Virus record (IMG/VR): IMGVR_UViG_2718217713_000004
Span: 1-33,279 of that record
Source: a virus
Lineage: Duplodnaviria > Heunggongvirae > Uroviricota > Caudoviricetes
Reading direction: 5' to 3' (one strand)
Length of the DNA stretch: 33,279 nt
A program made the translations under genes and the position numbers. Below, in pieces: positions 1-29,769 of the stretch (position 1 is the stretch's first letter; each line of letters opens with the position of its first letter). Under the pieces are notes generated by a model that searched no databases, had not been told where the DNA came from, and was given only the letters and a program-made list of their open reading frames with translations.

Positions 1-903
1 TTATGAAAGCATAGACCGTTTACCCTCCCTGGGTACGACGGAACAGGGGTCCTGATGGATAATTACATCCGATCCCGGAAAACGCCGTAAAATAGCCTGC
101 TCTACCTGATCCGCCACCATATGTGCCTGAACCAAAGGCAGAGAGTCTTCCATTTCCAAATGAATCTGAATAAAGCGGGTCGGCCCTGACTGCCGCGTGC
201 GAAGATCGTGAGCGCCGCTAACACCCGGCCAGGAAGTCACGATATCAATAATTTCTTGCCGTTCCTCATCAGGCAATGCGCGATCCAGTAATGACTGTAC
301 CGCCTCATATCCCATGCGTAACGCGCTATATAAAATATAGATGCCGATTCCCAATGCAAACAGAGCATCGGCGCGATGCCAGCCGTACCAGGACAACCCC
401 AGCGCCAGCAGAATTGCGCCGTTCATCATAACATCAGACTGGTAATGTAGCATATCAGCCCGCACCGCCTGGCTTTGCGTCCGGCGCACCACCCAACGCT
501 GAAACGAGACAAGGATAATCGTACAAATTAGCGCCACAATTGTCACGATAACCCCGACGCCTGGATCTGTCATCGGTGTTGGAGATATCAGATGTTGAAT
601 ACCCGTCAAAAACAGGAATAGTGCTGAACCGGAGATAAACATACTTTGCGCCAGCGCCGCGAGGGACTCAGCTTTACCGTGACCAAACGAGTGATTATCG
701 TCGGCAGGTTGCAGGGAATATCGCACCACCAGTAAATTCGTCAACGACGCGCCGATATCCACCAGCGAATCCACCAGCGCGGCGAGAATACTCACCGACC
801 CGGTATACCACCATGCAAAAATTTTAATCAGCAATAGCAGCGAAGCCATCGCCGTCGCAGCAATCGCCGCCCGACTGACCAGCCGTCCATAAGATTGATT
901 CAT
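1..903 (-). CDS. fieF: Cation-diffusion-facilitator family Fe(II)/Zn(II) efflux transporter FieF (YiiP), complete, host gene
   Basis: Translation from [36 protein letters not shown] ... to ... [16 protein letters not shown] is 300 aa and matches E. coli FieF as I remember it; the ORF track's upstream MIAGVF extension rejected in favour of ATG at 903. Confidence 0.9.
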
Positions 904-3096: not shown

Positions 3097-5544
3097 TTAA
3101 CCGTCATGCATCATGCTGGCACGGGCGCGCGCACGTTTATCCCGCTCGTATTTTTCGAGCGCATCCTGTAACTGGCGGTCGAGCTGAGTCCCCGGCGCAG
3201 TACCGCCCGTCAGACTGATGTGATATTCGTTTTTACTCTGGTCCACATAAGAGCGGCCAGCCGGTGCCGTGACCGGCTGATAAGCCTGATAGCCTGCATA
3301 AGAGCTGGTCGCCGGAATATAACCACCGGTGCCATACGTGGCGGCATGAGTCCTTGCTGCGGTCTGGTCAAGTGTGTCTGACTCTTTGTTGATAACACCG
3401 AGTTTTTCCAGTACCCAGTCAATACCGCTGCGCAGTTTGTTGAACGCATTAAGCGGCAGCATCAGCGCGTCAGCCAGTGCCTGCCCGAACATGACCCCCG
3501 TGTCACGGCAACGGTTTAGGGTGTCCTGGGTGGCTTTGACCGGGGCAATCAGGTTTTTAAACCACTGCCACGCGGCCTGTAACTTTTCGCCCAGCCAGTC
3601 AAACACCGGCTTAAGTGGCGTGAACAGTTCCCCCACCGGCGCAAATGCCGCTTTCAGCCCTTCCACCACACCGCCAAAGAATGCGCTGACAGGCTCCCAG
3701 TATTTACGGATAAGCAACGCCCCGGCGACAATGGCGGCCACCACAGCCACAACCGGCCAGCTAATTGCCCCGATGGCCGTCATAACAGCACTGCCTATCG
3801 TCGTGAAGATTGCCCCCATTGCGCCTGCTGCCGCGATAATGGCATTGATGCCGGTGATAACCGGCCAGGCTACGAGGCCAATGGCACCGATGATGCCAGT
3901 AAGCGCCAGCGCGCCACCGACAATGAGGCCGATGGTTGACGCCAGTGATTTGTTTTTCTGGATCCAGCCGTCGAGTTTTAACACATACTTTGTGGCCGTC
4001 TGAGTGAGCTTACGCAGTGCGCCTTCCTGCTGGTCAAACAGGTCTGTCCCCACCGCCTCATAAGCGGACTGAAACTCCTTAAAGTCACCGCCGAGGTTGT
4101 CCTGCATGATATTTACCAGCTCGGCAGTCTTCCCGTCTGAGGCTTTAAACGCAGCGGTCAGTTTGTCCAGCTTTCCGGTTGAGGCGGCAGTCATCAGCAC
4201 GGCGGCGGCTGAGCTGGCCTCCTCCCCGAAAATAGTTTTCATGTATTCAGCCTGCTGGGCAGTACCGAGCCGGTTTTTCTCAAAACTGGCCTGCATTTCT
4301 TTCAGAATGGTAAATATTGGCCGGGTGTTTCCCTTACTGTCTGAGGTTTTCACTCCAAGCTCTTTGAGTGCATCCCATGCTTTTCCCGTCGGTGCCTGCA
4401 GGCGGCTTAACACGGCACGGCTTCCCGTCCCCGCCATTGAGCCTGTGATTTTTGCATCATGCAGCGCCCCGACCATTGCGGCGGTTTCTTCAATGCTGAC
4501 ACCGGCATTTTTTGCCACAGGTGCGGCATAGGTCAGCGCATCGCTCATGCCGTCAAAATCGGCGGCGGTTTTGTTCATCGTCATGGAGAGAACATCCCCG
4601 ATATGAGCGACCTTATCGTTTGAAAGCTGAAAGGCGGATTTCATCCCCATCAGCAGGGCAGCGTTTTCTTCCATCGTGCGACGGTTCGCCAGCGCCATAT
4701 TCAGCGTGACCGGCGTTGCCGCCTGAATGGCATCAACATCCCCACCGGCTTTCGCAATAATAATCTGCGCACCGGCTGCATCATCTGCCGAGGCGGCGGT
4801 ATTGTCGCCGAGCTGGCGCGCCTGTTTGCGTAGTGCAGCCATTTCGGCGGAGTCTTTTGCCACTCCGAGCACGGCCTGCAATTCTGAGTTTTTCTGCGCA
4901 AACTCATAACCGGGCATCAGCAGCTTAACTCCGGCCATCGTTCCCGCCGCCGCAATCCCCACACCGGCAGCGCCCACCGAGGCCATATTTCCTGCCAGTT
5001 CCTTTCCGGCCTGATAACGCTGTTTTACTGCGTTAAGTTTTGCCTGTTGTGCACTGACACGCGCCAGTGCGTCGCGCTGACGGTTAAGCTGTGCGGTGGT
5101 TTCACTGATACGGTTTTTCAGCCCCTGCTCATCATGTGCAAGATTGCGGGTATTAATTCCCACAGCGGCCAGTTCCCGCTGCTGGCGCTTAACGGAATCC
5201 GTCAGGCGGTTATATTTCGCCTGTAAGTCCTCCGCCGCACGCTTTGCGGATTCCAGCACTTTCGCCTGAGCACGGGTCGGACGTTCAGTGTTTTTAAACT
5301 GTGTGGCAAGGGCTTCGGCCTCCTGCCGTGCCTTTTCAAGTGCATGACCAGTCACGGCGAGCTGTGCGCTGGTCTTGCGAAATCCCTCAATACGGGATGC
5401 CTGACCATTCAGCTCGCGCAGTGATTTTTGTGTTTCCCGGATATCCCCCGACAGCGACTTGCTCGCTGTGCGGATGGATTTAAACGGGCGGGATGCCTGG
5501 TCAACAGCCCTGAGCAATACCTGTAATTTTACATTGTTACTCAT
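3097..5544 (-). CDS. T: Tail tape-measure protein gpT (815 aa)
   Basis: Long coiled-coil-rich N-terminus, Ala/Gly-rich hydrophobic central segments, 815 aa as in P2 gpT; start ATG overlaps the E' stop (ATGAGTAA). Confidence 0.9.
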   Translation of the reverse strand: MSNNVKLQVLLRAVDQASRPFKSIRTASKSLSGDIRETQKSLRELNGQASRIEGFRKTSAQLAVTGHALEKARQEAEALATQFKNTERPTRAQAKVLESAKRAAEDLQAKYNRLTDSVKRQQRELAAVGINTRNLAHDEQGLKNRISETTAQLNRQRDALARVSAQQAKLNAVKQRYQAGKELAGNMASVGAAGVGIAAAGTMAGVKLLMPGYEFAQKNSELQAVLGVAKDSAEMAALRKQARQLGDNTAASADDAAGAQIIIAKAGGDVDAIQAATPVTLNMALANRRTMEENAALLMGMKSAFQLSNDKVAHIGDVLSMTMNKTAADFDGMSDALTYAAPVAKNAGVSIEETAAMVGALHDAKITGSMAGTGSRAVLSRLQAPTGKAWDALKELGVKTSDSKGNTRPIFTILKEMQASFEKNRLGTAQQAEYMKTIFGEEASSAAAVLMTAASTGKLDKLTAAFKASDGKTAELVNIMQDNLGGDFKEFQSAYEAVGTDLFDQQEGALRKLTQTATKYVLKLDGWIQKNKSLASTIGLIVGGALALTGIIGAIGLVAWPVITGINAIIAAAGAMGAIFTTIGSAVMTAIGAISWPVVAVVAAIVAGALLIRKYWEPVSAFFGGVVEGLKAAFAPVGELFTPLKPVFDWLGEKLQAAWQWFKNLIAPVKATQDTLNRCRDTGVMFGQALADALMLPLNAFNKLRSGIDWVLEKLGVINKESDTLDQTAARTHAATYGTGGYIPATSSYAGYQAYQPVTAPAGRSYVDQSKNEYHISLTGGTAPGTQLDRQLQDALEKYERDKRARARASMMHDG

Positions 5545-5964
5545 TCGTGTTCCCGCTTCGCCGGAGCGCCTTTTCGCGCCATGTGATGAGTTCGGTCAGG
5601 CTCATGGGATACAGTTCTGATGGCGGCCAGTGAAATATCACTGCCACATCCGCCATCAGGTCATCGACCGACAGATTTTTCGGAAACGTCACTGCACCGA
5701 GTTCGGCGACAAAAAACCGACCACCTTACCGGCCAGCGCCACAAGGTCAGGCAGTTCCAGTGCGGCAACTTCCTGCTCGGTCAGCATCGGTGCCGTCATG
5801 CGCGGCAACACCTTAATTAGTGCATCAACTTCAGAGTTTGCGACCGCTGCCAGACTGACACCGCGCAGCGTCCCGGCATTGGGTTTCATCAGCGTGACCT
5901 GTTCGATGACCTGCTCACCACGCTTGACCGGATTTTCCAGGGTAATGACATTTTCTTTGTTCAT
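5537..5964 (-). CDS. E+E': gpE+E' fusion produced by programmed -1 ribosomal frameshift at T-TTT-TTG (minus strand, plus coordinates 5710..5716); the E' extension ends ...ITWREKALRRSGNTNE and its stop overlaps the T start
   Basis: Slippery heptamer near the 3' end of E and an open -1 frame running to 5537 read directly from the sequence; E/E' frameshifting is established for P2 and analogous to lambda G/GT. Confidence 0.8.
5689..5964 (-). CDS. E: Tail assembly chaperone gpE (91 aa, zero-frame product)
   Basis: MNKENVITLENPVKRGEQVIEQVTLMKPNAG ... 91 aa, matching P2 gpE. Confidence 0.9.
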   Translation of the reverse strand: MNKENVITLENPVKRGEQVIEQVTLMKPNAGTLRGVSLAAVANSEVDALIKVLPRMTAPMLTEQEVAALELPDLVALAGKVVGFLSPNSVQ

Positions 5965-6020: not shown

Positions 6021-6539
6021 TCACAGGCCGATATTGCGGCGGTGTTGCTCCAGCCGGTCGACGCCGTTCACCTTCTCAATCATGTTGATGGTGTCGATTT
6101 CGACCAGCTCCTTACCGTCCATCGTCAGCCGGAAATAGGTGCAGACCACGGAGATTTTCGACTCGGTGTCTTCTCCCTGTTTACCCTCACCGGTGTCGAT
6201 TTCTTTCTGACGGCCACGCATGACCACTTCGACGGCCACCGTTTCGCCGGTATCGTCGCGCTGGTAAGAGCCTGCAAAACGAATCGGCACGGCATCCACG
6301 CCGGTTGCGGCGTAAAGCTCCCAGATAACCGAATCCGGGAAGCCACCGAGCGACCACTCCATTGACAGCGCATCGTCATCAAGGCCGAGGTCTACCGGTG
6401 CGCTGCCGTTCATCCCCGCACCGCGATAGTTTTCGAGCTTACGGGTCAGTTTTGGCAGCGTGACGGACTTCGCGACGCCCTGATAGCTGTAGCCGTTCAG
6501 AAAGACGTTCATTAACTTGAGTTTGCGCGGCATTGCCAT
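6021..6539 (-). CDS. FII: Tail tube protein gpFII (172 aa)
   Basis: Length, position and sequence match P2 FII. Confidence 0.9.
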   Translation of the reverse strand: MAMPRKLKLMNVFLNGYSYQGVAKSVTLPKLTRKLENYRGAGMNGSAPVDLGLDDDALSMEWSLGGFPDSVIWELYAATGVDAVPIRFAGSYQRDDTGETVAVEVVMRGRQKEIDTGEGKQGEDTESKISVVCTYFRLTMDGKELVEIDTINMIEKVNGVDRLEQHRRNIGL

Positions 6540-6551
6540 CGGTCAGGCTCC

Positions 6552-7742
6552 TTAATTGCTGTTAACCGAGGTGACCAGATTTGCCAGGTATTTATCGGTA
6601 ATACGCTGGCGCAGGGTCAGGTTTTCGAGAGGAGGCACCGGTGTATAGTCGTAGTCGATATACAGTTTTCCGGCCTTGAGGGTTTCCGCATCGTTGGATT
6701 CTTCGCTGAACCAGCATGAGCCATCCACGATATAGCCGTTTGTTTTCAGCTCACGGAATTTGGCATTGATGCCGTCAACGATATCGCGAATCAGCGTTGC
6801 GGTGATGGGCTTGTCCACCGCCCACATGTGCGCCTCAGCCATCGTGTCGGCCAGCACCTGCGCGGTGCGGGTGTAGTTTTCAAAGAGAAACAGTGGGTCA
6901 TCAGAGCAGGTACGGTTACCCCAGAAGCGGAAACCGTCGCGGCGAATCAGCGTAGTGACGCCTGACTCATTAAGCAGGTCAGCATCAGTGCCGGGCTTCT
7001 GCAAATCCCAGAAGACGGATGCACTGATGCCGGTAACACCGTTCACCCCGACGTTGGACAGCGTTTTATGCCAGCCCTGCTCCTGGTCGATTTTAGCGCG
7101 CAGACCCAGCGCACGGGCGGTGGCATACGCGGTGGCGGTGGTACTGGTAACCGTATCCCATGCGAGGAAATCCGGCCAGATGACCATCAGCTCACGCTGG
7201 CTGAAATTCTGGCGGTAGGCTTTCACCTCGGAAATGGTTTTACAACCCCATGCGCTGATATACCCGAAGGCATTCAGTTCCTGGCATACCGATGCCAGTG
7301 CGACGGCGACCTCTTTGGTGTCCAGTCCCGGTACGCCGAGAATACGCGGTTTAACGCCGGTAACCGACTCAGCGCCCATCAGGGCTTTCAGTCCGGTGTA
7401 CTGACCGTTTTCGTCAGTGGTGCCGATGATATTGGAAACGGTCTGCGCGAGTTTCGTTTCTTCGTCGTCGCCTGTTCCGTCTTCCACGCGCACGACAACG
7501 GTGACCGGTTTTGACTGGTCACCGATTGCCTGCAACGATGCCGCCAGCGTGCCTTTTTTACCGGCCTTTGCAATCGCGCTCTGCACATTGGTGATCAGCA
7601 CCGGTTTATTGACGGGGAAGGTTTCCGCATCCGCATCGCTGGCCGTGCAGACCATGCCAACAATGGCGGTGGATACGGTGGAAATGACGCGGGTGCCGTC
7701 GTTAATCTCCAGCACCTGCACGCCGTGATGATAGTCACTCAT
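6552..7742 (-). CDS. FI: Contractile tail sheath protein gpFI (396 aa)
   Basis: Length, position and sequence match P2 FI. Confidence 0.9.
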   Translation of the reverse strand: MSDYHHGVQVLEINDGTRVISTVSTAIVGMVCTASDADAETFPVNKPVLITNVQSAIAKAGKKGTLAASLQAIGDQSKPVTVVVRVEDGTGDDEETKLAQTVSNIIGTTDENGQYTGLKALMGAESVTGVKPRILGVPGLDTKEVAVALASVCQELNAFGYISAWGCKTISEVKAYRQNFSQRELMVIWPDFLAWDTVTSTTATAYATARALGLRAKIDQEQGWHKTLSNVGVNGVTGISASVFWDLQKPGTDADLLNESGVTTLIRRDGFRFWGNRTCSDDPLFLFENYTRTAQVLADTMAEAHMWAVDKPITATLIRDIVDGINAKFRELKTNGYIVDGSCWFSEESNDAETLKAGKLYIDYDYTPVPPLENLTLRQRITDKYLANLVTSVNSN

Positions 7743-7783
7743 CCGTTTAACTCCGTGGTTAATGGGTGAGTGATATTTTCAGT

Positions 7784-7799
7784 TGTGCCGGAGATGTCA
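7784..7799 (-). promoter_or_regulatory. Candidate Ogr-responsive late promoter element upstream of FI (minus-strand TGACATCTCCGGCACA; shares TGWCA-N5-GGCACA with the element upstream of V)
   Basis: Partial dyad about 50 nt upstream of the FI start codon, nearly identical in form and spacing to the one upstream of V. Confidence 0.4.
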
Positions 7800-7801
7800 G
7801 G

Positions 7802-8395
7802 CTATTTGTCCCGGTTGGCTAAGGGATGACACAATTTATTCTTTGTCGCTGATGAGGGGAATTTTTTATAGAGCGTGGACAGGCCAATATCAAAAATCAG
7901 CGCCACACGTTGACGAGATTCCCCCGCAGCCAGCAACCGTCCGACCTGCTCCCACTCACCCGCAGTGAGTTTCGGTCGTCTGCCACCAATACGACCTTTG
8001 GCTCTGGCCGCTTCCAGTCCGGCGCGTGTCCGCTCGACAATGAGTTCTCGCTCCATTTCAGCCAGGGCACCCATCACATGAAAGAAAAAACGCCCCATCG
8101 GCGTGCTGGTATCAATAGCATCCGTCAGGCTGCGAAAATTAACGCCGCGTTCGCGCAGTTCCTCAACCAGAATGACCAGATGCCGCATACTACGCCCCAG
8201 CCTGTCCAGCTTCCAGACCACCAGTGTATCCCCCTCAGATAATGTTCTGAGCAGTTTTTTCAGTCCCGGTCGGTCGGACTTTGTGCCGCTGATTTTATCC
8301 TCAAAAATCAGCTCACATCCTGCACACTCCAGCGCATTACGCTGCAATTCCGTATTCTGGTCATTTGTTGATACGCGGACATAGCCAATAAGCAT
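7802..8395 (-). CDS. Serine recombinase, DNA invertase of the Hin/Gin/Cin/Pin family (197 aa)
   Basis: N-terminus MLIGYVRVSTNDQ with catalytic Ser in RVST, resolvase/invertase core and C-terminal HTH region (GLSTLYKKF); sits adjacent to an invertible tail-fibre segment. Confidence 0.9.
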   Translation of the reverse strand: MLIGYVRVSTNDQNTELQRNALECAGCELIFEDKISGTKSDRPGLKKLLRTLSEGDTLVVWKLDRLGRSMRHLVILVEELRERGVNFRSLTDAIDTSTPMGRFFFHVMGALAEMERELIVERTRAGLEAARAKGRIGGRRPKLTAGEWEQVGRLLAAGESRQRVALIFDIGLSTLYKKFPSSATKNKLCHPLANRDK

Positions 8396-8450
8396 GATGG
8401 ATCCCCTGAATAAAAACCAGAGATGATGCCACTTGCCCGTTATCTCTGCA

Positions 8451-8476
8451 TTTTCATAAACGTTGGTTTGGGAGAA
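8451..8476. repeat. Invertase crossover site, right copy (ttttcataaacg-tt-ggtttgggagaa), hix/gix-like 26-bp site
   Basis: Two 12-bp half-sites around a 2-bp core; half-site pattern TTnTCnnAAACC is my summary of Hin-family sites; inverted copy at 10314..10339 shares 14 identical bp. Confidence 0.7.
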
Positions 8477-8839
8477 GCGGCAAAACTTGGCGCTGCTGTA
8501 GGGGTAACGGGTAATACCGGGAGAATATTGATCCCGGCTTTAATTGGTGGGGTTGAACAAAATATCATTTTCCAGTGGGTCTCTGGATTTCTTTCCGATT
8601 CGACTGGAGTAGCAACCGTGACATTACCTATGGCATTTCCTAACGCTCTGTTTCATGCCACTGCGATTGACTCAGGTGCTTCTGCTAGCTCGTGGAATGG
8701 ATCGGCCGGCACAACGTGGGGCTTCGATATTGGTGGCTCTACCAGAACGACAGTCAAAGTTCGTGTTTTAAGAACAACTAATGGGACTTCATGGGCGGGT
8801 GCTTCAGCTGCCGGTTGTTTATTCGCAATAGGTTATTAA
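8477..8839 (+). CDS. Silent alternative tail-fibre C-terminal domain (Sv'); promoterless and startless, in frame with the fibre constant region after inversion
   Basis: Reading frame ...GLGE-AAKLGAAVGVTGNTG... is continuous through the crossover site and shares the GLGE junction with gene H; the ORF-track N-terminus (MMPLARYLCIF) is not a real start. Confidence 0.7.
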   Translation, partial: AAKLGAAVGVTGNTGRILIPALIGGVEQNIIFQWVSGFLSDSTGVATVTLPMAFPNALFHATAIDSGASASSWNGSAGTTWGFDIGGSTRTTVKVRVLRTTNGTSWAGASAAGCLFAIGY

Positions 8840-8840
8840 C

Positions 8841-9272
8841 ATGAAAACAAGATACTTTTATGACGCCGTTGATAACGGATTTTATATTGAACCTGAAAGC
8901 AGGTTTATTCCTGAATCAGCTATTGAAATCAGTGTTAACCTCTACAACCAATTTGCTGGTATTGCCTGGCCTGAAGGTAAAATGCTTGGTGCAGATAGCA
9001 CTGGACTGCCCGCTTGGGTCGATGCGCCGCCTCCAACGCATGAAGAGCTTATTGAAATTACTCAATCAGAAAGACAGCTACTAATTAACCAGGCCAACGA
9101 ATACATGAACAGTAAACAATGGCCCGGTAAAGCCGCTATTGGTCGTCTGAAAGGTGACGAACTGGCGCAATATAATTTGTGGCTGGATTATCTGGACGCA
9201 CTGGAACTGGTTGATACTTCCGGTGCGCCAGATATTGAATGGCCTACGCCTCCGGCAGTTCAGGCCAGATGA
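8841..9272 (+). CDS. Alternative tail-fibre assembly chaperone (Tfa', 143 aa)
   Basis: Conserved Tfa C-terminus ...LWLDYLDALELVDTSGAPDIEWPTPP; 3' end convergent with and overlapping the minus-strand Tfa. Confidence 0.8.
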   Translation: MKTRYFYDAVDNGFYIEPESRFIPESAIEISVNLYNQFAGIAWPEGKMLGADSTGLPAWVDAPPPTHEELIEITQSERQLLINQANEYMNSKQWPGKAAIGRLKGDELAQYNLWLDYLDALELVDTSGAPDIEWPTPPAVQAR

Positions 9273-9846
9273 CATCCGGCGCGGTGCTGGTATCTGTTGC
9301 CGTCAACGCGTCAATATAATCCAGCGCAGCGTTAAGCCGGGTGGTTTCTGCCTGCGTCAGCTTCCGCCCGGCCTGCAATTTCAACTGAATCAGACTAATG
9401 GAAACCATTGCAGCATCAATCAGTGACTGACGCTGTGCTTCTGCCGCGTCTACTGCGGCGCTATGCTGTGCCTCGGTATCTGTCACCCATTTCTCACCAT
9501 CCCATTTATCGTATGGAGATAAAGGGGCGATAGTGGTTGTATTTTCAGGGTAATCACCCGGAGATGTGATTTCTTTTGATTCTCCTGTTTCGGTGCTATA
9601 GACGATTTCACCGCGATGGTCTGGCACATATTCCCATGAGTTAAAATCTGCAGAACGGCGGATAACATAACCCTCCCTATGTATACCAGGTGCATCCAGG
9701 CAGGAATATGCCGGGATACCAACACCAACGGCAAGATATTCACTTGAAGTGGAAATATATTCCCGAGTTTCACCATCATAGTTATAAACAGTAATATCCC
9801 CTGCCTTCGTAGCAATAAACTCGCTATTTAATACAGCGTTATCCAT
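9244..9846 (-). CDS. G: Tail-fibre assembly chaperone (gpG-like Tfa, 200 aa), currently in the expressed orientation
   Basis: C-terminus ...LNAALDYIDALTATDTSTAPDVIWPELP typical of Tfa/gpU(Mu)/gpG(P2) family; TAATG stop/start overlap with H. Confidence 0.85.
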   Translation of the reverse strand: MDNAVLNSEFIATKAGDITVYNYDGETREYISTSSEYLAVGVGIPAYSCLDAPGIHREGYVIRRSADFNSWEYVPDHRGEIVYSTETGESKEITSPGDYPENTTTIAPLSPYDKWDGEKWVTDTEAQHSAAVDAAEAQRQSLIDAAMVSISLIQLKLQAGRKLTQAETTRLNAALDYIDALTATDTSTAPDVIWPELPEA

Positions 9847-11153
9847 TATGCAGCCCTCACAATGTAGTTAAATGCAACGTTCACCGGGCGAGTTTCATTG
9901 GCGGTATTTGCCACCCTTGACATATCGAAATCAAATGTTGTGACACCATGCCCTCCACTACCTACGCCTGTAACCGCTGTTAATCCAGTAGTCAGATAGT
10001 TATTACCGTTATGACGAAATGGACCACTGGTAACTAAATCTTTAAAAAGCTGAATTTTCCCTATTGAACCAGTGACGTTTTGCATTGCATGCTCCTGTGA
10101 AGCCAATAGAATCCTTCCGGGGTCAATGCCTCTCCCGTCATCCCAGCCACGAATAAACTCACCGCGTAAATCAGGCAATTTATTTGTCGGGTAAGCCTTT
10201 GCCAGTTCCGGGTATTCTTCAGCAGAAAATGCCGCACCGTTGCATTTCAGCCAGCCTGTTGGCGGAGTGGCGGAAGGCCACGGAACAGGCACACCAACGG
10301 GTAATGCCGAACCTTCTCCCAAACCAAGGTATGCGAGAAGACCAGCTACATCCTTTCCACTCAAATGAGTCAGCGTCTCATCCAGTGGCTGCTTACCTGA
10401 CAGCGCATTGTTAATGGTGGTGCTGAATTTCGGGTCATTGTTAATGGCCGCGGCAATTTCTTTCAGTGTGTCCAGCGTGGCTGGCGCACCATTAATCAGA
10501 GCGGTAATAGCAGCCTGAACAAACGCAGTGGTCGCAATCCGCGTGGTGTTATTTCCTGCGGCAGGCGTCGGCGCTTTTGGTTCTCCGGTAAATGTCGGAT
10601 TATGTTTCTGCGCATACTGGGTATGAGGATCCTGTGCGGCAATGTGGTTTCTCATCTGGTCATCCACATACAGCCTTAATTCCAGGACTTCATCATCCAC
10701 GTATTTACGGGTCGCCAGTACCACCGACGGGTCGATTTTCAGCGTGATGGCTTCGGTATTCGTGACAACCAGAATCATGCGGATAGTCTGGGTACGACCA
10801 CTGCCTTCCTGCAACTGCGGTTTGTACGTTTCCGGGCAGTTCGCCACCGCAATGAGTACGCCTTCATCATCATAAAGCCCAATCTCACGGATCCAGAATC
10901 CGCCCTCGTTCTCAGGGATGATTTGCTCCGCAATAATCTGGCTCTGGTTGTTCGGGTCAACACTCAGAAGATTCAGCGGCGCGATGCGTTTCTGGTTAAT
11001 CAGTTTTGTCTGTGCCGGGTCTGGTGTCGGCAAGACACCATTCGCATCACCAACGGCCATTTGCGTCAGATTCAGCTTACTGCCGAGCATCGTCGCGTTA
11101 GCCAGCCGTGCAGCGCCCTGATTAGTCAGAATGGCGTAGTATTTCACTGTCAT
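9846..11153 (-). CDS. H: Tail-fibre protein gpH (435 aa): constant N-terminal part (about 10340..11153) fused to the currently expressed variable C-terminus (9846..10313)
   Basis: Fibre-like sequence with collar-type motif PVGVPVPWP...WLKCNGA; crossover site lies inside the gene at the LLAYLGLGE junction. Confidence 0.85.
   Translation of the reverse strand: MTVKYYAILTNQGAARLANATMLGSKLNLTQMAVGDANGVLPTPDPAQTKLINQKRIAPLNLLSVDPNNQSQIIAEQIIPENEGGFWIREIGLYDDEGVLIAVANCPETYKPQLQEGSGRTQTIRMILVVTNTEAITLKIDPSVVLATRKYVDDEVLELRLYVDDQMRNHIAAQDPHTQYAQKHNPTFTGEPKAPTPAAGNNTTRIATTAFVQAAITALINGAPATLDTLKEIAAAINNDPKFSTTINNALSGKQPLDETLTHLSGKDVAGLLAYLGLGEGSALPVGVPVPWPSATPPTGWLKCNGAAFSAEEYPELAKAYPTNKLPDLRGEFIRGWDDGRGIDPGRILLASQEHAMQNVTGSIGKIQLFKDLVTSGPFRHNGNNYLTTGLTAVTGVGSGGHGVTTFDFDMSRVANTANETRPVNVAFNYIVRAA
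10314..10339. repeat. Invertase crossover site, left copy (ttctcccaaacc-aa-ggtatgcgagaa), inverted relative to 8451..8476
   Basis: Fourteen bp (ttctcccaaaccaa) identical to the reverse complement of the right site; located inside H at the constant/variable boundary. Confidence 0.7.
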
Positions 11154-11761
11154 GCGTTTACTCTCAGGTTATCAATTAAATGAATGGCCGAGGCCGGGAA
11201 ATAATCCCCTCCGACAATAATGGCCTCCGGGGTGTAGGGATAAACCGTCAGGGCGTCGCCGTGATAGCATCCCGCACCGGCAAAAATGTTGCCGGTTGTA
11301 CTTAAACTGATAGCCAGTCCCGTCAGATGGCGGCTTGCCGGTTTTGCATCAGCAACGAGGCGCTCCAGCTCCTGATACATTTCCTCGGTAATACCCTGCT
11401 CAAGCACGCCAACAACGATACGGAACGTCCCCGGCTCCTCGTTGAATTGCCACCACTCCCTCACCTCAATCAGATAGCCGAGCGGCTCCACCACACGGCG
11501 AATCGCACCAATAGTGCCCTTATGGCAGTGAATGAAATACGCATCGCGGATAACAGCGCGTTTGGTCGCTTCCGGCCATTTATCATCCAACCTGTCAACC
11601 GAAAATGACCACGCCAGCCACGGCAGCAGATTTGCCGGACAGGTATCCGGGTTCCACAGCTCACGAATACTGACCGGCGTTTTTTCAATTTCCGCACAGG
11701 CTTTTGCGGCGGCGACTTCAAGCGGTGATGAGCCGGTCGGCAGCAGTCGCGAATCACTCAT
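11150..11761 (-). CDS. I: Baseplate assembly protein gpI
   Basis: Sequence and position match P2 gpI; overlaps the H start. Confidence 0.85.
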   Translation of the reverse strand: MSDSRLLPTGSSPLEVAAAKACAEIEKTPVSIRELWNPDTCPANLLPWLAWSFSVDRLDDKWPEATKRAVIRDAYFIHCHKGTIGAIRRVVEPLGYLIEVREWWQFNEEPGTFRIVVGVLEQGITEEMYQELERLVADAKPASRHLTGLAISLSTTGNIFAGAGCYHGDALTVYPYTPEAIIVGGDYFPASAIHLIDNLRVNA

Positions 11762-23324: not shown

Positions 23325-25283
23325 ATGTCAGATTTCGAAATTAAAATTGATTTGAATGTGCTAAATCACCTAGGGATGAGTCTCTATTCCAATACTCCCG
23401 CGGTACTAACTGAGATTATATCAAATGCATGGGATGCAGATGCTCAAAATGTAGAAATTACACTTGATGTTGAGAAAGGAGAGGTCATCATTAAAGATGA
23501 TGGTCATGGCATGTCTAAAGATGACATTATTAATAAGTTCCTAAAAGTCGGTTATGCTCGCAGGGAACATGGAAGAGCCAAAAGCGATCATCTAAAACGT
23601 CAAGTTATGGGCAGAAAAGGTATTGGTAAGCTTGCCATGTTTTCACTTGCCAATAAAATCCAAGTTTATTCGTACAAAAAGGGGGAACAGCCTCAGGCCT
23701 TTGAGGTAGATGTCAAAGATTTACAGCAAAGTATCAAAGAATCAAAAAACTATATTGCTGACTCCCTTGAAATACCCGAAAATCTTGCTTACGGCACTAC
23801 AATTAAATTATTTGAACTAAAAAAAGCCATTGATAGGACTCAAACTTACCTCAGAAAGCGAATAGCTCGTCGATTTAGCATTATTGGCCCCAACCATAAC
23901 TTTACAGTTAAAATTAATGGGACCGATATTACACCGGCAGATAGAGATTTCCTTTCAGATCTCGAGTTCATTTGGGAATTTGGCGAATCCGACCCTGAAA
24001 GGATAAAATCCTGCACAAACATCACACAAAAAAACATATTACCAAATACTATTACCTTTGAAGGAAAAGATGTAAAAGTTAGTGGGTACATTGGCAGTGT
24101 AGTTAAGCCATCACAGTTAAAGAAAGACCCTGAAATATCTAACAACAGCATTACTGTAATCTCTCACGGACGTGTTTTTGAGGAGGACATATTATTAGAA
24201 TTTGGAAGTGCTAAAGTATTCACCAATTATCTGGTCGGTGAAATAGTCGCCGATTTTCTAGATGATAACGAAAAGCCTGATATGGCAACATCTTCTCGTC
24301 AAAAACTACAACAGAATGATCCAAGATACCCTGTACTTAAAGGTTTTCTGGAAAGAACGCTACAACTAATCGATAAAGATTGGGATAAATGGAGACGCGA
24401 AAAAGGAGTAAATGAAGTTAAAAGTAATACTCCAATAGTAAGTGAATGGCTGAATTCTCTCAAAAAACATGAGAGAGAAAGTGCCGAAAAGTTAATTGGA
24501 CGAGTAAACACATTCCGTTTTTCTGGTAATGAGGAAGAACAAAAAGCAGCAAGAAAAACCGTATTAAAAAATACGGTATTAGCCTTTGAAAGACTTAGAA
24601 TTCAAGACAACCTTGATGCATTAGATAAAATAAGCAACCTTCAATCAGAAAATTTTAAAGATGTATTTGCATCTGTCAATGACATTGAAGCAAGCATGTT
24701 TTATGAAATTACTTCGCAACGCCTTAAAGTAATTGAAAAATTCCAAAAAATAACTGATGAAAATCAGCTTGAAAGAGCTGTACAAATGTATTTATATGAT
24801 CATTTATGGTTATTGGATCCTTCATGGGAAAGAGTCACAGGCACATCTGTTATGGAGCAAACATTGACCAAGGAACTAAAACAGATAAACCCTGATGCTG
24901 CTAGCGGTGCTCGTATTGATATCGCTTTCAAAACCGTTTCTGGCAAGCATGTAATTATTGAGATGAAACGACCTAAAGTGCACCCAGATATAATGAACCT
25001 AGTCGCACAAGGTAATAAATATGTACAGGCAACGACACAATGGTTCTCCAATAACCCTAAAAATTGCCCAGGTGGAAATATACCGCATATAGAAGTAATA
25101 TTCCTGGTTGGCTCTGGATATTTACAAGAGAACCAACACTTTATAAATATGCAATTACTTTCTATCAATGGAAAAATATTGACATATAATGACCTAATCG
25201 TGCAATCAAAACAAGCCTATGCTGAATATCAAGACAAAAAGAATGATGCAGCTAGAATTATGAAAATAGTTGAGGGAATCTAA
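23325..25283 (+). CDS. Hypothetical GHKL-family ATPase (HATPase_c / Bergerat fold, MutL-MORC-like N-terminal domain) with a C-terminal PD-(D/E)xK-like nuclease motif, 652 aa; candidate restriction or defence effector
   Basis: N box EIISNAWDA, G1 box IIKDDGHGM, G2 box GRKGIGKLAMF near the N-terminus; C-terminal ARIDIAF...HVIIEMKRPK fits D...(D/E)xK; Shine-Dalgarno aagga upstream of ATG; AT-rich codon usage unlike the phage backbone. Confidence 0.6.
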   Translation: MSDFEIKIDLNVLNHLGMSLYSNTPAVLTEIISNAWDADAQNVEITLDVEKGEVIIKDDGHGMSKDDIINKFLKVGYARREHGRAKSDHLKRQVMGRKGIGKLAMFSLANKIQVYSYKKGEQPQAFEVDVKDLQQSIKESKNYIADSLEIPENLAYGTTIKLFELKKAIDRTQTYLRKRIARRFSIIGPNHNFTVKINGTDITPADRDFLSDLEFIWEFGESDPERIKSCTNITQKNILPNTITFEGKDVKVSGYIGSVVKPSQLKKDPEISNNSITVISHGRVFEEDILLEFGSAKVFTNYLVGEIVADFLDDNEKPDMATSSRQKLQQNDPRYPVLKGFLERTLQLIDKDWDKWRREKGVNEVKSNTPIVSEWLNSLKKHERESAEKLIGRVNTFRFSGNEEEQKAARKTVLKNTVLAFERLRIQDNLDALDKISNLQSENFKDVFASVNDIEASMFYEITSQRLKVIEKFQKITDENQLERAVQMYLYDHLWLLDPSWERVTGTSVMEQTLTKELKQINPDAASGARIDIAFKTVSGKHVIIEMKRPKVHPDIMNLVAQGNKYVQATTQWFSNNPKNCPGGNIPHIEVIFLVGSGYLQENQHFINMQLLSINGKILTYNDLIVQSKQAYAEYQDKKNDAARIMKIVEGI

Positions 25284-25288
25284 TTATA

Positions 25289-25312
25289 CCCCCCTGTTTT
25301 TTGACAGGGGGG
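25289..25312. terminator. Hairpin between the convergent GHKL and methyltransferase genes (stem cccccctgt/acagggggg, U-rich loop); terminator-like, bidirectional
   Basis: Perfect 9-bp GC stem read from the sequence; no clean post-stem T-tract, so terminator function is tentative. Confidence 0.45.
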
Positions 25313-25324
25313 ATGACATAAGTT

Positions 25325-26374
25325 TTAAATATTCATTTCTGACAAATGTTTTAAAATAGTTTCACCTACGACCTCACCAAGCCTAACAGGAACAGCATTA
25401 CCTATTAAACGCGCAACTGTTCTCATTTCAATTTTTACATCATCAGGCCAAAACTCATACTTTTCTGGGAATGACTGTAATAGCGCAGCCTCTCTTAAAC
25501 TTAATGCTCTATTTTGGACAGGGTGCCCAAAGCGTCCATTCCCATATCCAATACATTGAGTTGTAATTGTCGGTCCAAGTTTATCCCAACACATTCTCCC
25601 ATATACAGCAGTATATGTAGAACCACTTTCTTTTGTATGACATTTTGCTCTTAGCTCTTCTGGCCAATCACGCCATGTTCCACCAGGTTTTGATGCCATT
25701 ATTCTTTTTATATTAATATCAGATAATGATGCAGAGCGATGTAGTTTATCTCCAGCGTGAACAGCACCGGCACTAATTTCAGGAAGATTACCGATTATAT
25801 CTCGCACCGTTTTATAATCATTCTTCTCATGAGTTGGTGGAATTATTTCTATTTCTCCATATTTTGATGCCAATAACACTAATCTTGAACGACTTTGTGC
25901 CATTCCATAGTCTGGACAAAACACCACCCCATACCAAACAAAATAGCCATCATTTTTAAGAGACTTAATGAAGTCCTTAAAAACCTTATGATTCACCACT
26001 CGGGGAACGTTTTCCATTGTAATAATATCTGGCTTTGCAAATTTAATTTGCTTAGCAAAGCTATAAAGCAAAGACCATCTTTTATCTTTTGAACGTACTA
26101 CCCCTAATTTAGCACTATTGGTATAGCTTGAAAAAGGTTGGCATGGGGCACAACCAGCCAAAACTCGAACCTTCGCTCCTTCGAAATATTTAACTAATTC
26201 GCCGTCCTCAATGTCTGTAACACTTTTCTGGACAAAGAGTGATTTATTATTTGTCTCATAGGCAAATCGACAGGCTGCATCTATATCATAACCTGCAACT
26301 ACATTAAGCCCCGACTTCTGAAGACCGTGAGTCAAGCCACCCGCGCCACAGAATAAATCAACAACCTTAATCAA
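25325..26374 (-). CDS. DNA (cytosine-5)-methyltransferase, Dcm-type
   Basis: Motif I DLFCGAGG, motif IV PCQPFS, motif VI ENV, C-terminal GNAVP in canonical order; start assigned to TTG at 26374..26372, preceded by AAGGAGG with 6-nt spacing (ORF track begins further upstream at 26476, also TTG). Confidence 0.85.
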   Translation of the reverse strand: MIKVVDLFCGAGGLTHGLQKSGLNVVAGYDIDAACRFAYETNNKSLFVQKSVTDIEDGELVKYFEGAKVRVLAGCAPCQPFSSYTNSAKLGVVRSKDKRWSLLYSFAKQIKFAKPDIITMENVPRVVNHKVFKDFIKSLKNDGYFVWYGVVFCPDYGMAQSRSRLVLLASKYGEIEIIPPTHEKNDYKTVRDIIGNLPEISAGAVHAGDKLHRSASLSDINIKRIMASKPGGTWRDWPEELRAKCHTKESGSTYTAVYGRMCWDKLGPTITTQCIGYGNGRFGHPVQNRALSLREAALLQSFPEKYEFWPDDVKIEMRTVARLIGNAVPVRLGEVVGETILKHLSEMNI

Positions 26375-26485: not shown

Positions 26486-28765
26486 TTAGTTTGTTTCAAA
26501 TCCCGCCCAACCATCAGAAATCGGATATGAAAACGTTTTCCCATCATAATTTACGGTCGCGCCACGCGCCAGCGCCTCAAGCTCCCATCGCTGCGGCCTG
26601 ATACCGTTCTGAGCAAGGTCAACGCGGATACGGGTAATTTGCATTCGTTCCGACCGGGCCAGTCTGGCCGATGGTGCAATTTCATGTGGTTTTAACGAGC
26701 TTCCGTTTCTTTGCTGACGATTTGGCGTTCTCCGACCGTGTTTTAATGCACCTCTGAGCGCCCTCACGACCTCCGGGTCACTCCATTCGATAACACTGTC
26801 ATCAACCAGATTAAGCACTGCTGCGGCGTGCTCAGAAGGTGTGGGAGCCGGTAACGAAGTATCACCACCGGTGAGTTTTCCACAGTTATTGACAGGACTC
26901 CGAGGCGCGGCGATGCCGCTTTTTAAAGTCAAAGGCTCAACGACCGGCACTTTCGGCACAATGCGCCAGTCCGTCGTTCTGGTGATATGAATATGACGCG
27001 CGCCGAGATGCGGCGCGTAAATGCCGACCACTCTCTCGACTTCTTCCTCGTACTCGTTAACGTCATCCGACGGGCTACGGGCAACCCTGACAGTCTGACA
27101 ATCGCGCGGAACATTTGCCCCACCCTGCGCGCTGATATACAACGCAAAATCACCACTGTCTGCGGCAGCGCGTGCAGCCTCGACGCGTTCGTCAAACTCA
27201 TCAGCAATGCTGACGCCGCGAGGCAATTTGCGTAGTTCACGGTAAGCCCCCATTGTCGGCAGGCCAACCGTTTTAAATTGCGGAATGCGCCACGTTGACG
27301 CCCATGCGGTAACAGCCGCGGCAGTGTCTTTCAGCGGCCTGCCGGTATCGTTATCGAGCTGACCATCCAGTGCATAGCCATCGATGTTTTTTGAAATGTA
27401 TTTCGCGATATACCCCGCAGCACCGCCCCGGTTAAGGTGTTTTGCCTGAAAACGGTTTCGCGCAGCTCCTCTTTCGTCGCCATCCTCTTTGAGCGCGTAG
27501 CGACGCATGATTTCAATAATCTGGTTACGCTGGCGTGGATTACAAAAAAGCATCATATGCCAGTGCGGCGTTCCGTCGTGGTGTGGCTCGACGACTCGCA
27601 AACCGTAGACCTGTAAATCATTATCCTTGAATGCCGTGCGCATCAGGCTCCAGATACGGCAGAGATAACGCTGCGCATCCTTTGGATTAAATGCCTCATC
27701 GTTCCAGCCGTGATTTAGCTGGACGGTTTTACTTTCTCCTTTTCCGACCTGACGTGTCGGGTGATACTTTGACGGCGCGGTCAGCGTGATAAACATCCCC
27801 ACATCACCCTCTGCTGCGGCGTAACGCTCAATACCGGCGATGGTGTTCATCAGCTCCATCCGGCGAATTTCTGGATTAGAAATACTGCCCATCACCTTAC
27901 TGATAAGGTCGATGCGCTCGCCGGTTTCCTTGTTTTCAAGGTCACACGATTTAAGAAACTCCAGATTTGCCTGGCGGCGCGCACGCACATCACGAATGGC
28001 ATGTTTACTGGCATAAGGAGAACGGTCTTTATTGACCTCCCCGACAGCAATCAGTAACGCCTCATGCCAGCGCATACGCTGGCCTTTAAGCTGATGAGTC
28101 CACCACTCATCGTTAAACAGACGGGCAATGGCAGAATATGCCTGCCTCGTGGTTATCTGTCCTTTACGGTATTTTTTCCAGTAGAGCGGGGAAATATTGA
28201 AAGCACGTGCAGCGCCAGCAACATGACCATACAGGTGAGTCTGCGCCTCATCCGTAAACAGCGATTCTTTTTCGCCATGTGCATCAACCCATGCATCGCA
28301 GAGTTCCTCATACATCATGAAAAGCTGCGATGAGATACGGGCGGCAAACTTTTTCAGCTCCTTGTCATTCATTCCAGGCAGGCGCGCATAGTGGTCACGC
28401 TCTGCCAGAAACAGCAACGACGCGTCGGTGTTCATTTCATGGCGCTGATTCACGCGCTCAATGCGCGGCCATAAACGACGCTGAAAAGTAGATGTGAGGA
28501 AATAAAACCCGTGCACCGGGCTTTTATTGCGCCGGATGTAGTCATAGCGTGAAGTAAACAGCGAGCGCAAAAAGTAAGGCAGGCGGTTAATCGTGGATAA
28601 AACACCTTGCACCTGACGCATCTCGTCACGTGTAAGGGGTCTTTCGCGCCCGACGGCCTCGCGTGGCGCGTTCCATGCATAAGCACCGGTAAACGCCTTA
28701 CCGGTGCCTGCAGCAAATGCTGACGGAGGTACGCAGGTGTATTGCTCCTGGAAAGAATGACTCAT
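26486..28765 (-). CDS. A: Replication initiation protein gpA (rolling-circle nicking endonuclease, 759 aa)
   Basis: Length and sequence match P2 gpA; start overlaps the stop of the upstream gene (ATGA). Confidence 0.9.
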   Translation of the reverse strand: MSHSFQEQYTCVPPSAFAAGTGKAFTGAYAWNAPREAVGRERPLTRDEMRQVQGVLSTINRLPYFLRSLFTSRYDYIRRNKSPVHGFYFLTSTFQRRLWPRIERVNQRHEMNTDASLLFLAERDHYARLPGMNDKELKKFAARISSQLFMMYEELCDAWVDAHGEKESLFTDEAQTHLYGHVAGAARAFNISPLYWKKYRKGQITTRQAYSAIARLFNDEWWTHQLKGQRMRWHEALLIAVGEVNKDRSPYASKHAIRDVRARRQANLEFLKSCDLENKETGERIDLISKVMGSISNPEIRRMELMNTIAGIERYAAAEGDVGMFITLTAPSKYHPTRQVGKGESKTVQLNHGWNDEAFNPKDAQRYLCRIWSLMRTAFKDNDLQVYGLRVVEPHHDGTPHWHMMLFCNPRQRNQIIEIMRRYALKEDGDERGAARNRFQAKHLNRGGAAGYIAKYISKNIDGYALDGQLDNDTGRPLKDTAAAVTAWASTWRIPQFKTVGLPTMGAYRELRKLPRGVSIADEFDERVEAARAAADSGDFALYISAQGGANVPRDCQTVRVARSPSDDVNEYEEEVERVVGIYAPHLGARHIHITRTTDWRIVPKVPVVEPLTLKSGIAAPRSPVNNCGKLTGGDTSLPAPTPSEHAAAVLNLVDDSVIEWSDPEVVRALRGALKHGRRTPNRQQRNGSSLKPHEIAPSARLARSERMQITRIRVDLAQNGIRPQRWELEALARGATVNYDGKTFSYPISDGWAGFETN

Positions 28766-29769
28766 TCACATACACCGGCATAGACACTACTGCAAACTGA
28801 CTTATCATTCACCGAAGCCAGCAAATCAAACTGTGCCCCGCCACGCGTGGTCATCGCCCAGTCACGATAAGACTCAATTCCGTAAGCATCGACAGTAATA
28901 ATATCAATGCGGCGTTCCGCACGACGCGGGTCATGAGTTGACGGGAAGAAAGTAGAATTTCCGCGTCTGGAGCATGCGGCGACAAGTCGCTCCCATTCCG
29001 CAACACGCTTAACCTCTTCCGGCCAGCGACTAAAAATTTCAGCTAATTCAGACTTTCTGGCGTGGATGCAGGGCATACAACCGACACGACTGCATCCCTG
29101 CTGGTATAACGGATTAGGTTTAATTCCATGACGTCTTGCAAATGCAAATACCTCCTCATGCGTCCAGTTCAGAATAGGACGGTATACATGGAGCCCGGGC
29201 GTATTGTCCGCATCCTCTTCCCAGGCAGGCAGACCCGCGCGCGCAGGAGACTCCTGAGCGCGAACCCCCTGCCAGCTAATTACCTCATCAAACTCATTAA
29301 GCGCAGGTAACACGACCTGAGTACGTACTGGCTCATGTTTAAGGTCAAAAGTGCAAAATCTGGCTTTAGTGGAAGGAAATCGCCCTTTCCACATGCACAA
29401 ATCAAGAAATGGGATACCAGTAGGCTTGAGAATTTCCAGCGCACAATTGATGCGCTCTGCCGCTTCCCCCGGAGACATTCCGCACTCTTCAACCAGAGAA
29501 ACAGGCCATTTCTCAGCAATAAACTTGCGCTTACCTTCAATCTGTCGGGAGAAGTCAGCTTTAACCCGTTTAACCGGCCCGAGTCGGTTCTCCAGATAAT
29601 CGAGATACTCCATTGTCTGCGGATGCTCATGCCCGGTGTCTGCAAAAACCGGCAAAAAATGCACACCGCTTTCAATACCAACAAGCCATTGAGCAAGGCT
29701 ATCCTTTCCGCCAGAAACAGAAATAATATTGATAGAGCTTTCAGCTCGGCAGCGGGTATCAACTATCAT
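28762..29769 (-). CDS. PP-loop ATP pyrophosphatase, PAPS-reductase-like family protein (335 aa); accessory gene absent from the P2 reference early operon
   Basis: PP-loop ISVSGGKDS near the N-terminus and Cys cluster CSRVGCMPC near the C-terminus; ATGA overlaps with orf83 (29766..29769) and A (28762..28765). Confidence 0.7.
   Translation of the reverse strand: MIVDTRCRAESSINIISVSGGKDSLAQWLVGIESGVHFLPVFADTGHEHPQTMEYLDYLENRLGPVKRVKADFSRQIEGKRKFIAEKWPVSLVEECGMSPGEAAERINCALEILKPTGIPFLDLCMWKGRFPSTKARFCTFDLKHEPVRTQVVLPALNEFDEVISWQGVRAQESPARAGLPAWEEDADNTPGLHVYRPILNWTHEEVFAFARRHGIKPNPLYQQGCSRVGCMPCIHARKSELAEIFSRWPEEVKRVAEWERLVAACSRRGNSTFFPSTHDPRRAERRIDIITVDAYGIESYRDWAMTTRGGAQFDLLASVNDKSVCSSVYAGVCE

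Follow-up and report, generated by a model that had tools for sequence, protein, structure and literature searches.

Close described relatives of the locus analysed here include the G segment of phage Mu, with its invertase Gin, and the C segment of phage P1, with its invertase Cin. In this type of system a crossover site within the fibre open reading frame divides a constant N-terminal part of the tail fibre from a variable C-terminal part, and each of two opposed cassettes encodes a fibre tip together with an assembly protein of its own. The H-G pair of P2 is fixed, and the gene order there is H-G-terminator-fun(Z)-pF-FI. Several P2-like phage records annotate the switch architecture with a DNA invertase, and for P2-like prophages of EPEC sequencing and PCR have demonstrated inversions of ~1.8 and 2.2 kb (PMC4272514, where carotovoricin Er is cited as a host-range precedent). 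A preprint describes invertases as common in the Z/fun hotspot, with inversion of adjacent genes; a study of the P2-like coliphages P88 and pro147 makes no mention of an invertase (PMC5285337). The invertible loci nearest to ours are those of EPEC E2348/69, of KC618326 (‘Escherichia phage P2’ from O157:H43 T22), of pro483 and of an O157:H7 P2-like prophage. They share the G-FI position and the gene set, at 93-96% nucleotide identity over 48-78% of the query. The arrangement is not new, being already documented for P2-like prophages, and what follows is a clean, well-delimited case of a textbook mechanism that adds little to it.

The stretch of DNA analysed (the window, 33,279 nt) is a complete and apparently functional P2-like prophage of Escherichia coli strain C10, located between fieF and cpxP. 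We are highly confident that its tail fibre is controlled by a two-state site-specific inversion switch of the Gin/Cin type. The relevant features are:

7743..7835, minus strand: late promoter pF of the P2 type with its activator-site region, lying upstream of sheath gene FI and overlapping the last invertase codons
7802..8395, minus strand: DNA invertase of the Gin/Cin type, 197 aa (Pfam Resolvase, 2e-52, and HTH_7, 1.2e-12)
8306..8377, minus strand: putative Fis-binding region and recombinational enhancer, within the invertase gene (nt 19-90)
8451..8476, plus strand: left 26-bp crossover site, TTTTCATAAACG TT GGTTTGGGAGAA, with the central dinucleotide at 8463-8464
8464..10326, no strand: invertible segment, 1863 bp, whose in-silico inversion reproduces the sequence of strain C11
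8465..8839, plus strand: silent alternative fibre tip (Sv'), with a gp53-like C-terminal domain (Pfam Gp53-like_C, 5.2e-9)
8841..9272, plus strand: silent tail-fibre assembly (chaperone) gene, 143 aa (Pfam Caudo_TAP, 6.7e-29)
9244..9846, minus strand: active tail-fibre assembly gene (tfaE-like), 200 aa (Pfam Caudo_TAP, 5.1e-32)
9846..10325, minus strand: active variable fibre tip (Sv), residues 277-435 (Pfam Collar, 3.5e-15, residues 287-334)
9846..11153, minus strand: tail fibre in the window orientation, 435 aa (Pfam Phage_tail_fib and Collar)
10314..10339, minus strand: right 26-bp crossover site, located within the fibre gene, TTCTCGCATACC TT GGTTTGGGAGAA on the minus strand, with the plus-strand central AA at 10326-10327
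10327..11153, minus strand: constant N-terminal fibre part (Sc), residues 1-276 (Pfam Phage_tail_fib, 2.6e-62)

The late genes of the prophage are in the same order as in P2, and the pF region is near-identical over the interval that begins at the annotated site of activator binding and includes the start of FI. In contrast to the fixed pair of P2, this prophage has two alternative cassettes. The original prediction had assigned the switch to the Z/fun position, and this placement is borne out: fun(Z) is replaced by the silent cassette and the invertase, and homology to P2 picks up again at ~7835, at the pF activator site within the 3' end of the invertase gene.

The invertase had been attributed to the Hin/Gin family, and we confirm this. 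The protein has the features of the small serine recombinases Gin/Hin/Cin/Pin (Din), namely an N-terminal catalytic domain, whose nucleophilic serine is near residue 9-10, and a helix-turn-helix at the C-terminus. Its open reading frame is intact, and the translation includes R7, S9, D64, R65 and R68, which we take to be the catalytic set of serine recombinases. Over 180 compared codons, amino-acid identity is 79% with Gin of Mu and 81% with Cin of P1. The Gin structure in PDB (3UJ3) matches at E 8e-94, with residues 1-182 aligned ungapped and S9 conserved. Like Mu gin, the gene is oriented away from the invertible segment, whereas P1 cin reads towards its segment and has a stop codon that overlaps cixL. 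The flank between crossover site and invertase start is conserved with Mu, including the ribosome-binding site. Promoter-like sites are no commoner in positions 7700-11300 than in shuffled sequence, and a promoter and terminator scan of this region recognised no invertase promoter between the gene and the left site; visual inspection of the flank revealed none either.

For Gin and Cin, a cis-acting enhancer with two Fis sites lies towards the 5' end of the gene that encodes the invertase. Here, part of the 5' coding region of the invertase (8306..8377) aligns ungapped with the enhancer annotated in P1 cin (78% nucleotide identity), at a homologous position, and with the same part of gin. It includes Fis-like candidate cores of the form G-N13-C at nt 22-36 and 71-85 of the gene, 49 nt apart. 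These likenesses suggest an enhancer role and Fis dependence, although coding constraint alone could explain the conservation; synonymous conservation relative to gin is 0.52 in this stretch and 0.49 in the rest of the gene, and thus not clearly higher.

Inverted crossover sites sharing 14 identical bp had been proposed at 8451-8476 and 10314-10339. The two sites indeed align with each other and with gixL/R of Mu and cixL/R of P1, with 14 invariant columns among all of them. They form most of an inverted repeat with 27-nt arms (8451-8477 and 10313-10339, 81% complementary, 1835 nt apart), the longest inverted repeat in positions 6500-11500. The arms share an identical core of 15 nt (8463-8477), of which 14 nt fall within the 26-bp limits; the repeat here is imperfect, in contrast to the perfect 31-nt repeat of KC618326. 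As in gix/cix/hix-type pairs, the two 26-bp sites are inverted and their central dinucleotides match, the left TT and the right AA being compatible for inversion. The central TT, which cixL and cixR share, falls where the crossover is annotated in P1. In its outer half (TTTTCATAAACG) the left site diverges from the gix/cix consensus. A degenerate gix/cix-like pattern finds exactly two matches in the whole window, both of them these sites, with 0.04 expected by chance.

The right site encodes LGLGE, residues 276-280 of the 435-aa fibre, and lies within the fibre open reading frame at the boundary between the constant N-terminal and the variable C-terminal part, as in Mu G and P1 C. Beyond it lie two opposed cassettes, each of which pairs a fibre tip with an assembly protein. 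This agrees with the prediction of two alternative fibre C-termini (of the Collar and Gp53-like_C types) and of two convergent, overlapping assembly genes (both Caudo_TAP). The overlap is 29 bp, and the two assembly proteins are 35% identical over the C-terminal 80 residues. The silent tip was also said to be in frame through the crossover site and to share the junction GLGE (residues 277-280), which is common to both tips, and an in-silico flip yields an uninterrupted, in-frame 400-aa fibre. The accompanying statement that the silent tip lacks a start codon is correct only in part: there is none inside the invertible segment, but the frame is open to an ATG ATG at 8423/8426 in the fixed flank.

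How close is the locus to its relatives in detail? With Mu it shares the order of constant fibre part, tip, chaperone, chaperone', tip' and then an outward-reading invertase, as well as homologous 26-bp sites. The Mu segment is larger (~3 kb, against 1.86 kb here), its chaperone genes are separated rather than overlapping, and the host phage here is P2-like, not Mu-like. The P1 C segment, at 4.2 kb, is larger than the 1863 bp here and its cassettes are unrelated, without sequence homology between our cassettes and P1 S. The constant fibre part shares repeat elements, at 62-74% identity, with the constant part of P1 S, and it is 39-42% identical to P2 H. BLASTP searches with the cassette proteins other than the active tip found nothing in Mu S, U, U' and S' at 1e-3; the fibre tip had no significant match to P2 H, the active assembly protein had a marginal match to P2 G (E 0.029) and the silent one had none. 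At the BLASTP level, we therefore rejected the cassettes as homologues of those of Mu or P2.

Does the segment invert? Strain C11, a second cow isolate, has the prophage at the same fieF/cpxP locus in the opposite orientation. Inverting positions 8464-10326 of the window in silico gives 0 mismatches to C11 over 33,279 nt, and thus both orientations exist in nature. The 2-kb flanks on each side are also identical, so the inversion is the sole difference across 37,279 nt between C10 and C11, which are two assemblies, not one population. The left breakpoint falls within 8463-8477, and the breakpoints are inside the predicted sites. The predicted flipped junction matches C11 at 100% identity over 900 nt, and in C11 the tip that is silent here continues the constant part in frame, as a 400-aa phage tail protein (WP_249531589.1). 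The invertase protein is identical in the two strains (WP_019841968.1). The original prediction was to be abandoned if deep sequencing only ever detected one orientation and the invertase was inactive as well; the other orientation is present in C11, in an otherwise base-identical prophage. The pair constitutes a neat natural control, 37 kb of DNA that is identical but for the inversion. Among more distant relatives, strains 1409 and 210221272 have the orientation of the window and SOI121 is flipped. The pairing of a collar-type with a gp53-like tip is rare, occurring in ~5 complete E. coli genomes at a minimum of 88% identity (900-nt junction queries).

We considered whether the locus could be a frozen relic in which invertase or sites are inactive, the C10/C11 difference going back to one ancient event or to exchange through general recombination. 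The diverged outer half of the left site, the lack of a detected invertase promoter and the presence of the exact prophage in only two assemblies (C10 and C11) would fit such a history. However, the inversion must be younger than any point mutation, because it is the only difference in 37,279 nt. The invertase reading frame is intact with all catalytic residues in place. General recombination is also disfavoured by the shared core of only 15 nt; such a core is too short for efficient RecA-dependent recombination. A relic is very improbable.

In the preferred reading, that of a working two-state switch, late transcription would enter the segment from the constant fibre part, by analogy with the V-W-J-I-H-G operon of P2, and the promoter arrangement of the switch is probably of this kind. 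In the window orientation this would yield the 435-aa fibre, consisting of constant residues 1-276 and the collar-type tip, followed by the 200-aa assembly protein. The invertase would bind the two inverted 26-bp sites, probably assisted by an enhancer that binds Fis and lies in the 5' part of its own coding sequence, and cut at the central TT/AA (8463-8464 and 10326-10327), so that the 1863 bp between the cuts are inverted. The constant part would then be joined at LGLGE to the gp53-like tip, giving the 400-aa fibre and next the 143-aa assembly protein. We infer that each assembly protein is specific for the tip with which it is paired. As tip and assembly protein would be swapped together, a lysogen population would release two kinds of particles that differ in receptor specificity. 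A change of host range upon inversion is suggested by the unrelated tip domains and by the precedents of Mu, P1 and carotovoricin Er.

The ATG in the fixed flank is in frame with whichever cassette is in the silent position. PGAP annotates the open reading frame from 8423/8426 in C10 as a CDS of 138 aa; the annotated counterpart in C11 has 172 aa. Mu has the same feature (Mup52). After inversion by PinQ, StfE2 of e14 was reported to block adsorption of other phages (PMC12529663). By analogy, the fixed-flank ATG could give the switch a dual role, with a short fragment of the silent cassette acting as a phase-variable adsorption block. This is a long shot, but if true the switch would contribute to host defence as well as to the host range of the phage. 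It is more doubtful still that the switch mainly serves the host, with the open reading frame expressed in the lysogen and a free receptor-binding fragment blocking adsorption of other phages. The in-frame start in both orientations and its counterpart in Mu speak for this reading, but upstream of 8423 we found neither a good ribosome-binding site (Shine-Dalgarno) nor a promoter-like site. Moreover, only 14 codons lie in the flank, so the open frame is unremarkable, and in a complete prophage that appears functional a host-range role for the phage is sufficient. Multi-state, shufflon-like systems with more than two variants, such as Min of p15B or the three-repeat EPEC locus, do occur in P2-like prophages, but for this locus the probability is negligible: multiple inversion involves at least three crossover sites, no third site exists in the 33-kb window even with up to 3 mismatches allowed, and the only other inverted repeat in the segment (9182-9199 and 9308-9325) is inside the convergent assembly genes and unlike a crossover site.

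Host-range prediction for P2-like prophages should count both tips. In automated annotation the silent cassette appears as a gene in its own right and the invertase only as a “recombinase family protein”, and because of this, fibre variants of the kind described here can easily be mistaken for separate phages or strains.

The window spans one complete P2-like prophage, inserted between fieF and cpxP, and is identical to the corresponding sequence of E. coli strain C10 (cow isolate, NZ_CP010132.1). Host gene fieF (1-903, minus strand) opens the window, and the end of the integrase gene closes it. The prophage encodes an integrase, a C-like repressor, Cox, replication gene A, capsid and lysis modules, baseplate V-W-J-I, fibre, sheath, tube, tape measure, U, D and Ogr. 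The region of interest comprises five genes:

7802-8395, minus strand, serine recombinase gene (197 aa; Resolvase and HTH_7)
8423-8839, plus strand, ORF with a Gp53-like C-terminal fibre domain, between the 200-aa assembly gene and the recombinase gene
8841-9272, plus strand, second tail-fibre assembly gene (143 aa; Caudo_TAP)
9244-9846, minus strand, tail-fibre assembly gene (200 aa; Caudo_TAP)
9846-11153, minus strand, fibre gene (435 aa; Pfam Phage_tail_fib N-terminus; Collar domain at residues 287-334)

The assembly genes are convergent, with 29 bp in common, and their products share 35% identity over the C-terminal 80 residues. A second inverted repeat inside the segment (9182-9199 / 9308-9325, 18 nt, 89% complementary) sits in these genes, whose C-terminal parts are homologous, and is unlike a crossover site.

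Within 6500-11500, the longest inverted repeat pairs 8451-8477 with 10313-10339 (27 nt, 81% complementary) and has an identical core of 15 nt (8463-8477). A degenerate pattern derived from this repeat matches the 33-kb window twice, at these two sites, versus 0.04 matches expected by chance. Alignment reveals an AAACC-TT-GGTTT core common to both sites, Mu gixL/gixR and P1 cixL/cixR, and the central TT (8463-8464; plus-strand AA at 10326-10327) is the dinucleotide annotated as the crossover point in the P1 record. The related P2-like phage KC618326 has a perfect 31-nt inverted repeat (3760-3790 / 5624-5654). Beside its invertase stands a complete copy of the fibre-gene site and, after it, what is left of an outer half-site of the window type, an arrangement suggesting that the invertase-proximal site was rebuilt in one lineage.

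Both orientations exist in nature. We inverted 8464-10326 and searched 5,426 complete E. coli genomes for the novel junctions; strain C11 (also a cow isolate, NZ_CP010133.1) contains both, with 100% identity across 900 nt. Compared base by base, C11 and the flipped window have 0 mismatches over all 33,279 bases, the locus is fieF/cpxP in both strains, and the flanking chromosome is the same for 2 kb in either direction, so the inversion is the sole difference between two copies of one prophage. Against the unflipped window, mismatches first appear at 8478 and last at 10312, which places the breakpoints within the predicted sites, in their 15-nt cores. Among more distant relatives, strains 1409 (94-95% identity) and 210221272 (88%) carry the window orientation and SOI121 (90%) the flipped one.

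Fibre reading frames are preserved in both states. The inner half-site, the same in both copies, codes for GLGE, and the central TT sits in the codon just before it. In the fibre this is a Leu codon because its first base, C, is supplied by the constant N-terminal side, and both fusions thus read ...LAYLGLGE.... In the C11 annotation the fibre is a 400-aa protein and the collar-type tip is the silent ORF. The original prediction of a Hin/Gin-family invertase, inverted crossover sites and alternative tips joined in frame at GLGE is borne out, except that the silent tip, described there as lacking a start codon, belongs to an ORF that starts at ATG 8423 in the fixed flank. The ATG ATG of this flank (8423-8464) is in frame with whichever cassette is silent, which accounts for the PGAP CDS there in both C10 and C11. 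A homologous flank ATG in Mu is the Mup52 start. A host-defence role for the silent ORF is improbable: a receptor-binding fragment reported to block phage adsorption provides precedent (PMC12529663), but no clear ribosome-binding site or promoter upstream of ATG 8423 supports it.

Over Gin residues 1-182, the recombinase aligns gap-free with the Mu protein (PDB 3UJ3, E 8e-94). Across 180 codons its identity is 79% with Gin and 81% with P1 Cin, and it retains nucleophile S9 and R7, D64, R65 and R68. The start of its gene is 55 nt away from the left site, and the gene is transcribed away from the segment, as in Mu and unlike P1; the flank from site to invertase start codon, ribosome-binding site included, is conserved with Mu. 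Gene nt 19-90 (window 8306-8377) align gap-free, at 78% identity, to the enhancer annotated in P1 cin, with Fis-like G-N13-C cores at nt 22-36 and 71-85. This agrees with, but does not prove, a Fis-dependent enhancer, as this stretch also codes for the protein's most conserved portion and shows no clear rise in synonymous conservation.

A two-state Gin-type switch best explains these observations. That it is a dead relic is unlikely, given an intact invertase and an inversion more recent than any point mutation across 37 kb. The shared 15-nt core is too short for efficient RecA-mediated exchange, and a multi-state shufflon is excluded because the window holds only two sites. In the two-state switch, invertase dimers would occupy both crossover sites, probably together with enhancer-bound Fis, and would cut the central dinucleotide and exchange strands, swapping the fibre tip and downstream chaperone read from the late operon. 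By analogy with Mu, P1 and P2 biology, transcription probably starts at the late promoter upstream of V, inversion is likely Fis dependent, chaperones may be specific for their tips, and the orientations would differ in receptor and host range.

In P2 the order is H, G, terminator, fun(Z) on the opposite strand, pF activator site and promoter, and FI. Here the silent cassette and invertase replace fun(Z), the predicted position. P2 homology restarts at about 7835, the pF activator site, and continues near-unchanged into FI; the invertase gene thus has its last dozen or so codons, and its stop, within P2-type promoter DNA. The ORF extends about 15 residues past the Gin and Cin ends; its end (7802-7840) enters DNA near-identical to the P2 pF activator-binding site, with the stop codon in the FI late promoter region. 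The constant fibre part is related to P2 H (39-42%) and has a repeat element in common with the P1 S constant part (62-74% identical). Mu S/U/U'/S' have no detectable similarity to either tip or either assembly protein, and comparisons with P1 S, P2 H and P2 G gave no significant match in tip or either assembly protein.

The finding is ordinary. Switches of this kind have textbook examples in Mu G/Gin, P1 C/Cin and e14 P/Pin, programmed inversions are known to target phage tail genes as a class (PMC9881135), and the literature already describes the switch in P2-like prophages. Goldberg et al. 2014 described inversions in two P2-like prophages of EPEC E2348/69, one a simple two-variant switch, with a four-variant locus confirmed by PCR (PMC4272514). 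The P2 Z/fun hotspot often codes for a DNA invertase, accompanied by inversion of adjacent genes and tail-fibre gene swapping (2024 preprint, 10.1101/2024.10.15.618418), and the gene arrangement seen here, including an annotated DNA invertase, recurs in several P2-like phage records.

A second invertase and gp53-like cassette, 93% similar, occur elsewhere in the C11 chromosome (NZ_CP010133.1, 3818117-3818894). One invertase of this family could conceivably invert, in trans, the segment that belongs to another. In some prophages, Z0117EC0148 among them (see NZ_CP098178.1, 1779801-1782634), a collar-type start adjoins both the constant part and the invertase, implying much longer inverted repeats. 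A type II restriction-modification pair (23325-26374) occupies the P2 old/tin hotspot, flanked by replication gene A and the portal gene:

23325-25283, plus strand, BbrUII/HgiDII-family restriction enzyme
25325-26374, minus strand, DNA cytosine methyltransferase

A phosphoadenosine-phosphosulfate reductase family gene (28762-29769, minus strand) lies in the early region, directly upstream of the replication endonuclease gene.
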